NCBI GenBank assembly: GCA_964016885.1
Contig: OZ024747.1
Location: 69,440,001 to 69,504,000, forward strand
Source: Eledone cirrhosa
Lineage: Eukaryota
Reading direction: 5' to 3'
DNA: 64,000 nucleotides
Every line of letters starts with the position of its first letter. Positions within the stretch are counted from its first letter, which is position 1. A program made the translations under genes and the position numbers. Shown piece by piece: positions 51,201-52,480 of the stretch. Under the pieces are notes generated by a model, which worked only from the letters and a program-made list of their open reading frames with translations, was not told the DNA's origin and searched no databases.

Positions 51201-51308
51201 GGTGGAAGGGCTGATGCCTTGGGCGTTAAGCAAAAATGTAGAGGCGAGAGTGGATGGTTTTAATTGTTTTGGTGTGTTGTTAATTTGTTTGTTTGTTAAT
51301 GGCAGCAA
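48288..51308 (-). CDS. ORF2 of element A: AP endonuclease + reverse transcriptase
   Basis: APE motifs LNAQG, LTETHL, GLYRPP, MGDFN, LDLIF, SDHDMV; RT motifs [43 protein letters not shown]. No stops; the listed start is TTG, not ATG. Confidence 0.95.
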   Translation of the reverse strand: MLPLTNKQINNTPKQLKPSTLASTFLLNAQGISPSTNTQKWKIKFLEDWIDVHPNHIPFFVLTETHLSNLHLEAEVKVKNFKAIRADRAGRRKGGTAIYVHNSFSTEAMNIFTNGYCEAVTVFSQTNNLLVVGLYRPPQTPVPCFKECLNSIKCFIQECHPDNILMMGDFNLPGVDWSTNTLPPGSSASTSDREAVESLLDFMDDFFLSQLVLEPTRCHKNVLDLIFSNHTDNIHNIAVEKTLLSDHDMVLCDLRFHRPIYKPNVISPVHPFDAMDFHNANWEAISHDLAHVDWSFTHTHTPTNIKKSWQTFVDTVTNICAKHTPLRTINKSKSRIPRNRKTLIRKIKRTNKKINNLKYCQQQHINLTAISSLEIKKHNLQNNIMSLINNQRRAEEAWAIEKIKLNPKVFFSFAKKHKITGSTVGPLIDENGTLQDNAKTMGEILQKQYCSVFSNPDMADLGCIGDVTPHYTLSDITFGAPDVLAAIKEIKHNSAVGPDRFPACVLKACQHQLASPLANLWRNSLDAGYVPENLLSQSVVPVFKKGNKSLAVNYRPISLTSHIIKVFERVVRSRMTHFLESNNMLNSNQHGFRNGRDCLTQLLHHFDDILRALGEGSNTDVIYLDFSKAFDRVDHNILLRKLSNIGVTGKLLQWIKSFLSNRTQHVVVEGVKSSPAKVSSGVPQGTVLGPLLFIIYINDITDIIKHSNIKIFADDSKLQKVINGVDDRISLQSDLLAVTQWAEKNNMLLNEDKFELIHFGKEDALKLPYSLPSGETLVASNNIRDLGVTVDSNISWTTHISSKVDMARRMCSWILRTFQSRDSRTIILLFSTFARPHLEYCCPLWSPHTKQSIMKLEAPQRAITKKIDGMSDLDYWGRLENLKLYSLQRRRERYIICMMWKMFHHHCPNDVGIAFKIHPRLGPRAIRPIQKSKSQLITTIRHNYFTSIGPALFNITPGHVKTETDHTKFKKSLDKFLQVIPDKPPTPGYVSANSNSVLEWAMVPKF

Positions 51309-52480
51309 TGGGAGTTTGTGCAGTGGGGTGATAGTGGAGGGTGGTGCTGGGTGATAGCTCGAATGTTTTTTTCCAGTTCTTTTGCCAGATTCATTATGGC
51401 TAAAAAAGAGGAAGAAGTTTCCTGTTTAGAAGACTGTTGGTGACTGTGGTAGTGGTTATTTTTATGTAGGTTATGGTTTTTGTTTTTGCTTTTATTTTTA
51501 ATTTTATTTTCATTTATCCGACGGGTCCCCGGGAGATGGGTAAAGGGACAATCCCGGTCTAAACACAATCTGTCTCGCAGGGAAAAACGGCAGATTTGTG
51601 GATTCCTTGTTTGAGTTATTGGTGGTTGTGTTGGTGTTAAATTAGAGTATGTATTATGGTGGTGGCTGTTTGTGGGGATAGATCGTTTTGTCCTAGGTAA
51701 ATGGGTGAATTTGCAGCCACTATCCGTACATATTCTATAGCGTAGAGAGTAGCGGCAAATGATGGGGTTTCGAGTGGGTGGGTATATGGGTGTGGGTGTT
51801 GTGAGAGGTGTAGATGATGGTTTGGGTAGGATTTGACGACCTTTGTGGACTGTGGGAGGGAGAGTTCTTGTTCTGGTATTAGAAGGTAAATTCCTTGACA
51901 TAGCAGTAGACAAAAATGTTGTAGTAGTAGTAGTAGGCAGAGATGTTGGCAGTGGTGATGATTGGACTGCTGGGCCAGAGAAAGGATGTGGCGTTTCATG
52001 CTGTGAGACAGAGGCTACTGGGGGGTCAATAGTTTCATTTAGTAGATCGGCCATTGTTGATGAATCAAGGAGTGGTTCACACTGTTGTTGTTGCTGTTGT
52101 TGATGTTGTTGTTGTAGCTGTTGTTGATGTTGTTGTTGTAGCTGTTGTTGTTGTTGCTGTTGTAGCTGCTGTTGTTGTTGTTGTTGCTGTTGTAGCTGCT
52201 GTTGTTGTTGTTGCTGCTGCTGGACAGCATTCGAAGAGAAAACACACCGTAGTTTATCCAAATGTTTATTGATTAATTTAAAAGCAATTTCGATTTGCTT
52301 TAATTTATTTTGAATCTGTTGTTCAGATCGAGTTTTCAAAAATTGAACTGTACGTTTAGCAATGTCGTTCAGAGATGAAGCATCTATATTTTCTGTTTGG
52401 GAAAGGCAATGCCATGTGTTTATTAGAATGTCGATTTCATTATCAGACCAGTTCTGTTTGGATTTTTGCTGGTTAGCCAT
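51296..52480 (-). CDS. ORF1 of element A: N-terminal Myb/SANT-like (trihelix-type) domain, polyQ tract, two CCCH zinc fingers
   Basis: ATG-initiated 394-aa ORF; WSDNEIDILINTW...RSEQQIQNKLKQI; polyQ at about 52084-52221; C-x8-C-x4-C-x3-H at 51701-51757 and 51536-51592. Confidence 0.85.
   Translation of the reverse strand: MANQQKSKQNWSDNEIDILINTWHCLSQTENIDASSLNDIAKRTVQFLKTRSEQQIQNKLKQIEIAFKLINKHLDKLRCVFSSNAVQQQQQQQQQLQQQQQQQQQLQQQQQQQLQQQHQQQLQQQHQQQQQQQCEPLLDSSTMADLLNETIDPPVASVSQHETPHPFSGPAVQSSPLPTSLPTTTTTTFLSTAMSRNLPSNTRTRTLPPTVHKGRQILPKPSSTPLTTPTPIYPPTRNPIICRYSLRYRICTDSGCKFTHLPRTKRSIPTNSHHHNTYSNLTPTQPPITQTRNPQICRFSLRDRLCLDRDCPFTHLPGTRRINENKIKNKSKNKNHNLHKNNHYHSHQQSSKQETSSSFLAIMNLAKELEKNIRAITQHHPPLSPHCTNSHCCH

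Follow-up and report, generated by a model that had tools for sequence, protein, structure and literature searches.

The window, a 64,000-nucleotide stretch of Eledone cirrhosa DNA, contains a full-length, intact-looking CR1 LINE (copy A) whose first open reading frame (ORF1, protein P0001; 51296..52480, minus strand) encodes 394 amino acids from ATG to TAA. A preliminary description, made from the sequence alone, had taken this frame for a LINE ORF1, and rightly so: directly downstream lies a CR1-clade ORF2 frame (48288..51425, minus strand) that runs for 1045 codons without a stop through an APE endonuclease and a reverse transcriptase (RT), with Pfam matches to PF14529 (E 6e-14), PF03372 (E 2e-7), and PF00078 (E 4e-31). 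ORF2 is followed by a 3′ UTR with a short tandem tail of TTCAAAGTT-like units (48195..48287, minus strand), which directly joins a TA array. At the other end, the putative 5′ UTR (52481..52990, minus strand), whose 5′ limit is approximate and comes from one copy, carries a tandem duplication of ~220 to 240 bp that itself contains short TA runs. The coding strand has 0 ATGs in the 510 nt upstream of ORF1, and the ORF1 ATG is therefore the first on the likely transcript.

CR1 elements are characterized by a short tandem-repeat 3′ tail, by 5′-truncated copies, and by the lack of a C-terminal CCHC or RNase H. The element at this locus has a tandem tail and a truncated second copy (copy B), and its ORF2 shows no C-terminal CCHC pattern and no RNase H Pfam match. 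Compared by eye, its RT is identical at 152 of 157 residues to O.sinensis_33_LINE, a cluster of 69 RT members assigned to the Jockey superfamily and the CR1 clade (PMC10294476, Table S7 and Data S2); on this near-identity to a cluster placed by a published tree, the element is a CR1-clade LINE. Every one of the 30 SLTSHI-motif entries in the RT alignment of that study comes from Octopus. The study is confined to RT: the only mention of ORF1 in its text is in a reference title, and the ORF1 architecture is not described.

Copy B (55921..59250, plus strand) is truncated at its 5′ end inside the second zinc finger of ORF1 and lies head to head with copy A, from which it differs by 17 substitutions and an insertion of 1 nt that shifts the frame. 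In ORF2, 9 differences are synonymous and 7 nonsynonymous (dN/dS 0.22, P = 0.003). The skew of the 17 substitutions toward synonymous sites, together with the different tails, ruled out the inverted pair as an assembly fold-back artifact. The CR1 family is young and recently active in octopus. Interrupted (TA)n arrays lie at the 3′ end of copy A (47274..48195, no strand) and between the 5′ ends of the two copies (53007..55919, no strand); within the latter, the interruptions change from TG to CA at about position 54,915. Two pieces of a different CR1 family, each with TA arrays on both sides, follow: a 5′-truncated one (59812..60992, minus strand), which serves as a control for TA preference, and a second, shorter one (62889..63263, plus strand). 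They are 98% identical to each other, and their family shares 38.6% amino acid identity with that of copy A. An Rfam scan of window positions 1 to 47200 gave 0 matches. A related-locus search with ORF2 found none in genome and viral contigs and one distant locus (22%) in metagenomes, which was left out of the analysis. The stretch or part of it was present in 20 of 24 listed sequencing runs; the 6 that held at least half of its words come from 3 studies with 3 organism labels, and no RNA run was among the listed runs with the stretch.

P0001 has a modular layout, all of it encoded on the minus strand. A Myb/SANT-like domain with a basic third helix (residues 9 to 74; 52259..52456), supported by Pfam PF13837, alignment A2, and charge, passes into a heptad repeat, a candidate coiled coil, that continues helix 3 (I56-L60-I63-F67-I70-L74-L77-F81; 52238..52315). 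These are followed by a polyQ tract encoded by a CAA/CAG microsatellite (residues 87 to 133; 52082..52222), a P/T/S-rich linker (residues 134 to 236; 51773..52081), two CCCH fingers of the pattern C-x8-C-x4-C-x3-H (residues 242 to 260, 51701..51757, and residues 297 to 315, 51536..51592, the latter being the family-conserved terminal finger), and a C-terminal SFL..L..L..E segment whose conservation is seen in alignment A3 and in a pairwise comparison with P0004 (residues 357 to 378; 51347..51412). The strings quoted in the preliminary description map to residues 10 to 23 (NWSDNEIDILINTW) and 51 to 63 (RSEQQIQNKLKQI), and its account of about 45 residues of polyQ and a P/T-rich linker agrees with what we find: 47 residues, 41 of them Q, and a linker that is 50% P/T/S. 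A whole-ORF1 search for homologous proteins gave 0 matches among 8000 candidates. A representative protein search with ORF1 returned 24 matches; we kept 12 (4 in the Myb region and 8 in the finger region) and dropped the other 12, whose alignments ran mainly over polyQ or linker and of which 3, scanned against Pfam, gave no match. P0003 combines Myb, Q, and linker, and P0004 linker, finger, and tail; Myb and CCCH were seen on a single chain only in the ORF1 of copy A.

The suggestion that the fingers are internally duplicated is borne out. The two 30-residue finger units are identical at 20 of 30 amino acids and yet at only 50 of 90 nucleotides, with synonymous codon differences at 15 of the 20 positions that share a residue. 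Such synonymous divergence is unexpected from chance or dead sequence, so the coding sequence itself demonstrates an old internal duplication maintained at the protein level. Pfam matches to the fingers stay under the cut-off (zf-C3H1, E 0.001; zf-CCCH_2, E 0.006), and likeness to CPSF30 and Nab2 is weak (E 0.2 to 0.64); both fingers nevertheless follow the CCCH ligand pattern C-x(7-8)-C-x(4-5)-C-x3-H with a conserved aromatic, and the C, C, C, and H ligands are invariant in 9 of 9 alignment rows. By analogy with their family, the fingers would bind zinc and RNA.

The finger motif and the helix after it are common to eight database proteins (P0004, P0008, P0010, P0013, P0014, P0016, P0018, and P0024), and the two long ones, P0013 and P0018, bear a PHD-like Cys/His pattern at the N terminus; a search for homologous proteins with the finger region matched 1 of 5 candidates. 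We presume these PHD-like CCCH proteins to be LINE ORF1s from their resemblance to similar elements and from the shared C-terminal layout. As in P0001, the last finger of both is of the C-x8-C-x4-C-x3-H form, contains P..C..S and H..GT.R, and is separated by a low-complexity gap from a short helix. What sets them apart is the PHD-like module (with a weak Tudor-knot match in P0018) and additional Cys/His fingers of other kinds; in P0001 the head is Myb-like and the terminal finger is present twice. Because the finger is common to relatives with a PHD-like N terminus, the Myb-like domain looks like the swap of a chromatin-reader module, and its arrival on an existing CCCH-type scaffold is the likelier course. 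Among the few proteins sampled, the PHD-like form is the more widespread, which suggests that the swap may have run from PHD to Myb. The earlier characterization of P0001 as built like a transcription factor thus gains no support, since finger and helix recur in eight proteins, two of them with PHD-like heads.

CR1/L2 ORF1s are sorted into types I to V in the scheme of Khazina and Weichenrieder as extended in PMC4120745, and share with P0001 a modular ORF1 ahead of an APE-RT ORF2, with N-terminal readers such as PHD often shuffled. Domain shuffling in CR1 ORF1s is documented in the same survey, which also proposed a general-targeting role for the PHD (PMC4120745). Among Pfam matches up to E 10, P0001 has no RRM, CCHC, Tnp22, esterase, or PHD, which sets it apart from types I to IV (RRM+CCHC, Tnp22, PHD(+RRM), and esterase); its composition leaves little room for a faint RRM, and in this scheme it would fall into the unclassified type V. 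The contrast drawn earlier with known CR1/L2 architectures holds, as a count of the words Myb, SANT, CCCH, and C3H in the text of this 448-element ORF1 survey gives 0 for each (PMC4120745). Myb-type and CCCH-type ORF1s are both missing from it, and measured against it P0001 is a new ORF1 variant. A literature search with most subscription journals and Repbase Reports outside its scope found no Myb or CCCH in a LINE ORF1.

Sequence comparison also upholds the Myb/SANT-like assignment of the N terminus. PF13837 (Myb_DNA-bind_4) is the best match of P0001 among 24,736 Pfam models, residues 9 to 73 scoring 23.4 to 23.5 bits (E 8.1e-5), under the gathering cut-off of 27 bits. P0003, a 46%-identical relative, scores 31.7 bits (E 2e-7), above the curated cut-off, and P0005 scores 15.5 bits, under it; Pfam scans of P0007 and P0020 gave no PF13837 match. 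PF13837 is the top match in 3 of the 5 family members scanned. Helix 3 keeps R51, Q55, N58, K59, and K61 in each of the 4 aligned sequences (A2; ~37 to 47% identity), and residues 45 to 80 contain 8 K/R and 3 D/E. A usual Myb domain has three tryptophans, of which P0001 keeps only the first: W11 is present in all 3 alignment rows that cover the site, and the later aromatic sites hold L/F and L/I (A2). These comparisons establish a conserved Myb/SANT-like signature in the relatives. The proposed check by Pfam and AlphaFold accordingly gave, in its Pfam part, a match under the cut-off for the query and did not confirm the three-helix fold: the two AlphaFold models, built on 1 and 4 sequences, are of low confidence (pTM 0.38 and 0.39) and predict three helices with helix-helix-long helix boundaries.

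R2 elements have an N-terminal zinc finger and a Myb domain, and use the Myb domain on their target DNA. Copy A resembles them as a non-LTR element with a Myb-like domain and zinc fingers. It differs in its APE endonuclease, two ORFs, CCCH fingers, and PF13837-type Myb-like domain; the single ORF of R2 goes with a restriction-like nuclease and with specificity for rDNA. The Myb-like protein of PIF/Harbinger elements, a SANT-Myb-trihelix protein, binds DNA, including that of its own element, and also the transposase (PMC9392472). Here too a putative SANT-Myb-trihelix domain sits in a mobile element; PIF/Harbinger differs in being a DNA transposon with the domain on a separate protein. No sequence link from the Myb-like domain to a donor was found, and by analogy PIF/Harbinger and MSANTD/trihelix proteins are a plausible donor class.

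Together, the anatomy and clade of the element and the constraint on its fingers, which the data establish, lead us to a reading to which we give a probability of about 50%. P0001 would be an octopus CR1 ORF1p in which the element's RNA is packaged by both CCCH fingers together with the basic stretch that follows, oligomerization runs through the heptad repeat extending the third Myb helix, and the N-terminal Myb/SANT-like module, having replaced a PHD-like (sometimes with Tudor-knot) reader on the same scaffold, provides general tethering to double-stranded DNA or chromatin. Insertion in (TA)n would be favored mostly by the endonuclease, by the terminal TT/TA of the tail meeting the array, and by the abundance and harmlessness of the arrays; unrelated retroelements would then share this preference because it is set mostly outside the Myb domain. 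PolyQ had earlier been proposed as the oligomerizer, which is not supported: relatives carry only 3 to 5 Q at the same place, the length of the tract is evidently labile, and it may merely lengthen the repeat. With its clean, perfect heptads across residues 56 to 81 and the long helix in both models, the heptad repeat is the better candidate; a trimer prediction for the N-terminal domain, with a score of 0.24 against a mark of 0.32, favors neither side.

It is possible, but unlikely, that the domain descends from Myb/SANT and no longer binds DNA, serving instead as a helical module for oligomerization or for protein contacts (ORF2p, nuclear import), the part that the Harbinger Myb-like protein plays for its transposase. 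A reduced aromatic core, perfect heptads from helix 3 onward, and models with long helices in place of a compact helix-turn-helix are all consistent with this, as is the contact of Harbinger Myb-like proteins with transposase as well as DNA (PMC9392472). However, the invariant exposed R/Q/N/K/K at the position of a recognition helix exceed what a coiled coil needs, and the models were built on 1 and 4 sequences.

We judge it rather improbable that recognition of (TA)n or its cruciform by the Myb-like domain tethers the RNP there and sets the insertion sites of the family, as the preliminary description had proposed. The basic helix 3 with its conserved exposed residues and the R2 Myb domain on target DNA point that way, and the 3′ junction of each copy falls in a TA array (2/2), against an array cover of 5.1% in the first 47 kb of the window (P ~ 0.003 if independent). 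The four LINE pieces, however, cluster within one 17-kb stretch and are therefore not independent draws. Moreover, other elements behave likewise: a (TA)5+ run is found at most 11 nt from both pieces of the other CR1 family (2/2, a comparison that excludes its ORF1 since both are 5′ truncated), from the 3′ end of an RTE, from one end of a Penelope-like fragment, and from 3 of 10 SINE-like copies, against a background of 11% within 25 nt of such a run. Adjacency to TA in the window thus extends beyond the family, and because unrelated elements adjoin TA arrays too, the Myb-like domain is dispensable for explaining the sites; its tethering to (TA)n is not supported. The arrays may also be abundant targets, with (AT)n making up over 10% of a squid genome (PMC9068888). 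Microsatellite targeting by APE elements is believed to be driven by the endonuclease (PMC3812793). Waldo, Mino, Kibi, and Koshi are likewise APE-type LINEs in simple repeats but have listed targets of ACAY, AC, TC, and TTC (Dong: TAA), not TA (PMC3812793), and target-specific families are mostly early branched, in Tx1 and R1 rather than CR1 (PMC4640811).

A long shot, in our view, is that a three-helix, coiled-coil N terminus resembles Myb by chance, in which case ORF1 would simply be of the CCCH type with a helical head that fits no class. The query lies under the Pfam cut-off, Atlas searches gave leads only, with every score under 0.9, and fold searches with the low-confidence models matched no Myb chain, the best VIA Z scores (5.2 and 6.5) both falling on unrelated helical chains. 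Foldseek with a low-confidence model returned nothing under E 3; its top row, an R2 chain, is no evidence (E 3.3, probability 0.04, rmsd 30). A search of the N-terminal domain against solved-structure sequences gave nothing under E 0.25 and no Myb chain among its matches, and Z-alpha rows (E 0.4 to 0.8) were discarded as chance. A search of longer proteins with the Myb alignment matched 1 of 3306, itself an input sequence. Against chance stand PF13837 as the top match in 3 of 5 members, the score of P0003 above the curated cut-off (E 2e-7), and predicted helix boundaries that fit the helix-helix-long helix layout.

The junction of the two frames raises a further possibility. ORF2 lies in the −1 frame relative to ORF1 with a 130-nt overlap, and its first Met is residue 148, inside the endonuclease, with no AUG before that domain. 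Both slippery heptamers of ORF1, the candidate sites U_UUU_UUA (51401..51407, minus strand) and A_AAA_AAC (51365..51371, minus strand), fall in ORF1 frame within the overlap, and the −1 frame is open into ORF2; no unusually stable stem-loop lay 5 to 9 nt downstream, the z scores of all 6 folds, computed without pseudoknots, lying between −0.4 and −1.5. A −1 frameshift at either heptamer would yield a Myb-polyQ-CCCH-EN-RT chain in which the Myb-like domain guides the endonuclease to (TA)n or AT-rich DNA, and the same machinery may add or invert TA-array sequence at 5′ junctions. The odds of this are low; if true, it would place Myb in cis with an APE endonuclease, the R2 design independently reinvented in CR1, with an expression strategy like that of retroviral gag-pol. 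Autoregulation, in which ORF1p would bind the 5′ UTR tandem unit through the Myb-like domain as the element's own transcription factor, is very improbable: the duplicated ~220- to 240-bp unit with short TA runs, the likeness of polyQ and P/T-rich tracts to activation regions, and the binding of Harbinger Myb-like proteins to their own element's DNA (PMC9392472) fit it, but polyQ length is not conserved and the 5′ limit of the element comes from one copy.

How ORF2 is translated has been called an open question (PMC3894237), for which an AUG-less, −1-overlapping ORF2 offers a direct test case. The octopus genome that houses this young, intact-looking family consists in large part of LINEs and (TA)n arrays. 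RNA packaging is the role ascribed to LINE ORF1 proteins, some of which carry N-terminal readers (PHD and others); Myb-like and PHD-like heads on the same CCCH scaffold amount to a natural swap experiment on whether ORF1 has a part in insertion-site choice. If the Myb-like domain tethers only loosely, the family would add another ORF1 type to a group known for shuffling.

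The ORF1 of copy A, a full-length CR1 LINE (~48195-52990, minus strand), has an architecture that is real and constrained: a Myb/SANT-like head, a candidate coiled coil and duplicated CCCH fingers. The reading frame reported in the preliminary description is present (51296-52480, minus strand; 394 aa, protein P0001), its quoted motif strings are exact, and the 510 nt upstream contain no ATG on the coding strand. Behind the head lie a polyQ tract (residues 87-133, 41 Q of 47), a linker (residues 134-236, 50% P/T/S) and two C-x8-C-x4-C-x3-H fingers (residues 242-260 and 297-315). 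The fingers are internally duplicated, as proposed: the units share 20 of 30 residues versus 50 of 90 bases. Of the 20 codons for identical residues, 15 differ synonymously. The pair is therefore an old duplication maintained by protein-level selection. By comparison with its relatives, polyQ is a non-conserved feature; their longest Q runs are 5, 5, and 3, and another relative stops before this position. A CAA/CAG microsatellite encodes the tract, and the genome is rich in microsatellites. We would thus move oligomerization, earlier attributed to polyQ, to the extension of helix 3 of the head, a perfect heptad series (I56-F81) running directly up to polyQ.

Downstream, a 1045-codon frame (ORF2) encodes an APE endonuclease and reverse transcriptase (RT), followed by a short 3′ untranslated region (UTR) whose tandem tail leads into a (TA)n array. 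Copy B (55921-59250, plus strand) starts within finger 2 and shows 17 substitutions relative to copy A, plus a one-base insertion. Nine ORF2 changes are synonymous and seven non-synonymous (dN/dS 0.22, p 0.003), so both copies derive from active source elements. A fold-back artefact as the origin of the pair is excluded by the same substitutions and ratio. RT residues 584-740 match O.sinensis_33_LINE at 152 of 157 positions (by eye, alignment of PMC10294476), and all 30 SLTSHI motif entries in that alignment come from Octopus; the element is therefore an octopus CR1. Published work places this cluster in the CR1 class with 69 members (PMC10294476) and records 13 recently active CR1 families in O. 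vulgaris (PMC13282606).

A P0001-type finger with a low-complexity gap was found in 8 distinct database proteins, most with an 'FL..L..L' segment after the gap. From their layout and general background, these proteins, known from sequence alone, may be LINE ORF1s. The closest relative, P0004, has a single finger where P0001 has two. The two long members, of 538 and 499 aa (mutual identity 32%), carry a PHD-like Cys/His pattern upstream of the finger, by pattern match; a Pfam scan of this pair (P0013 and P0018) gave no PHD match in either, and the P0018 N terminus matches Tudor-knot weakly (E 9e-4, under the cut-off). None of the relatives joins Myb to CCCH in a single predicted chain. Because the finger is common to relatives with differing heads, CCCH is an existing scaffold and the N-terminal module the variable part.

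Judged by its sequence, the N-terminal domain is probably Myb-like. PF13837 ranked first among 24,736 Pfam models (23.4 bits, E 8e-5; cut-off, 27, not reached), and a search of representative proteins returned four relatives of the region (P0003, P0005, P0007, and P0020). P0003, 46% identical to P0001 over 90 aa, scores 31.7 bits, above the cut-off; P0005 scores 15.5, under it, and P0007 and P0020, both partial, gave no PF13837 match in the Pfam scan. In a four-row alignment, third-helix residues R51, Q55, N58, K59, and K61 are invariant, and P0001 residues 45-80 hold 8 K/R versus 3 D/E. The usual Myb core has a pattern of tryptophans, of which P0001 keeps only the first, a point against the likeness. 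Also against it, a pair of AlphaFold models, built from 1 and 4 sequences respectively, gave three helices at low confidence (pTM 0.38 and 0.39), which neither refutes nor confirms the three-helix Myb-like fold named in the preliminary description. Chance likeness is an improbable alternative.

The analysis establishes the element's anatomy, CR1 clade and recent activity, together with selective constraint acting on the fingers and a Myb-like signature that is conserved. Beyond this, at a probability of roughly 0.5, we favor a mechanism in which the fingers and basic stretch would bind element RNA, the heptads would oligomerize ORF1p, the Myb-like head would be a general DNA or chromatin tether, having replaced a PHD-like reader, and the insertion site would be chosen mainly by endonuclease, tail, and array abundance. 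A Myb domain has a role in R2 elements. That the head is solely a protein-contact module is the strongest rival, though unlikely.

Copies A and B both end in (TA)n arrays. Such arrays make up 14.8% of the window, compared with 5.1% of its first 47 kb. A second CR1 family (38.6% amino acid identity) is present as two pieces (59812-60992, minus strand, and 62889-63263, plus strand) that have (TA)n at both ends, and TA runs also adjoin an RTE 3′ end, a Penelope-like fragment at one of its ends, and 3 of the 10 copies of a SINE-like repeat, against a background of 11% of positions within 25 nt of a comparable TA run. The (TA)n preference is common to unrelated elements, and the suggestion that Myb tethers the RNP to (TA)n is not supported by the contents of the window. 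Published work attributes microsatellite targeting by APE elements to the endonuclease (PMC3812793). The other family's pieces lack ORF1, so a Myb shared by both families is possible; specific reading of TA by Myb is slightly less likely than the protein-contact reading.

The RTE-like LINE (5957-8985, plus strand, broken) has a short-repeat tail that stops at a TA run and an inserted PHD finger in its RT region (PF00628, E 2e-6, above the cut-off). A broken fragment (38686-39731, minus strand; weak RVT_1 match, E 0.07), presumably Penelope-like, begins directly after a (TA)24 run. The ~190-bp SINE-like repeat has ten copies or pieces, 74-97% alike (2612-2814, 4263-4460, 10164-10357, 12809-12965, 16633-16825, 20636-20829, 21890-22082, 29201-29361, 33955-34048, and 44967-45105); the copy at 20636 has an apparent short target-site duplication, and an Rfam search of positions 1-47200 gave no match.

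At 48195-63263, one 17-kb compound TA array contains four young CR1 pieces, which belong to two families and are oriented -,+,-,+, as two head-to-head pairs. Plus-strand interruptions of the arrays (47274-63991) are mostly TG, with switches near 54,915 and 62,600; CA interruptions lie directly 5′ of the plus-strand LINE pieces (the ~1.0 kb before copy B and the 0.3 kb before the piece at 62889-63263), with a third CA-interrupted patch at 61.8-62.0 kb. In element sense, 5′ flanks are CA-type in 4 of 4, and 3′ flanks of the two plus-strand pieces revert to TG within 20 nt. Insertion may add or invert array sequence at the 5′ junction, or the palindromic array may flip by fold-back.

ORF2 lies in the -1 frame relative to ORF1, overlapping it by 130 nt; its first Met is residue 148, deep in the endonuclease, a domain that has its first motif at residue 67. 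Under the usual slippery-site rule, the 395 codons of ORF1 contain two in-frame heptamers, U_UUU_UUA (51407) and A_AAA_AAC (51371), both within the 44-codon overlap. Synonymous-codon resampling, chosen after the sites were seen, produced at least two heptamers in 1.0% of trials, and at least one in 49% (the conserved Phe-Leu almost forces one); a heptamer for which the -1 frame was also open arose in 23%. Stable structure is absent downstream of both (z -0.4 to -1.5), and the second heptamer's residues are not conserved in P0004. Near-cognate starts for ORF2 are CUG (51323 and 51305) and AUU (51284), and AUG-independent re-initiation is known from L1. On this analysis, such re-initiation seems likelier than -1 frameshifting, which has roughly one chance in four of making ORF2. 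If true, frameshifting would put Myb on the same chain as endonuclease and RT, the best form of the tethering idea; the reading that joins fusion and tethering is improbable.

The putative 5′ UTR holds a tandem duplication (52492-52948, unit ~220-240 bp), promoter-monomer-like, with short TA runs in both units. Autoregulation at this 5′ repeat is the least credible alternative.

A 448-element ORF1 survey (PMC4120745) names RRM, CCHC, Tnp22, PHD, esterase, and zf/lz domains, with domain shuffling as its main conclusion. Term searches found no Myb, SANT, or CCCH in PMC4120745 (whole text) or PMC5203782, no Myb or SANT in PMC13343379, and no Myb in PMC11203168, PMC3708506, or PMC4640811. A search of the accessible literature for a Myb/CCCH LINE ORF1 found none; one may be on record in Repbase, Dfam, subscription journals, the curated libraries or figure supplements of PMC10294476, or the supplements of PMC4120745. 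The architecture is apparently undescribed, within a known CR1 family. P0018, with its cluster members P0027-P0029, and P0013 carry several Cys/His fingers ending in a P0001-type CCCH, and are jointly described by a Tudor-knot-like head and a PHD-like finger. If LINE ORF1s, they would be one more ORF1 type missing from the catalogues, bearing a pair of chromatin-reader domains.
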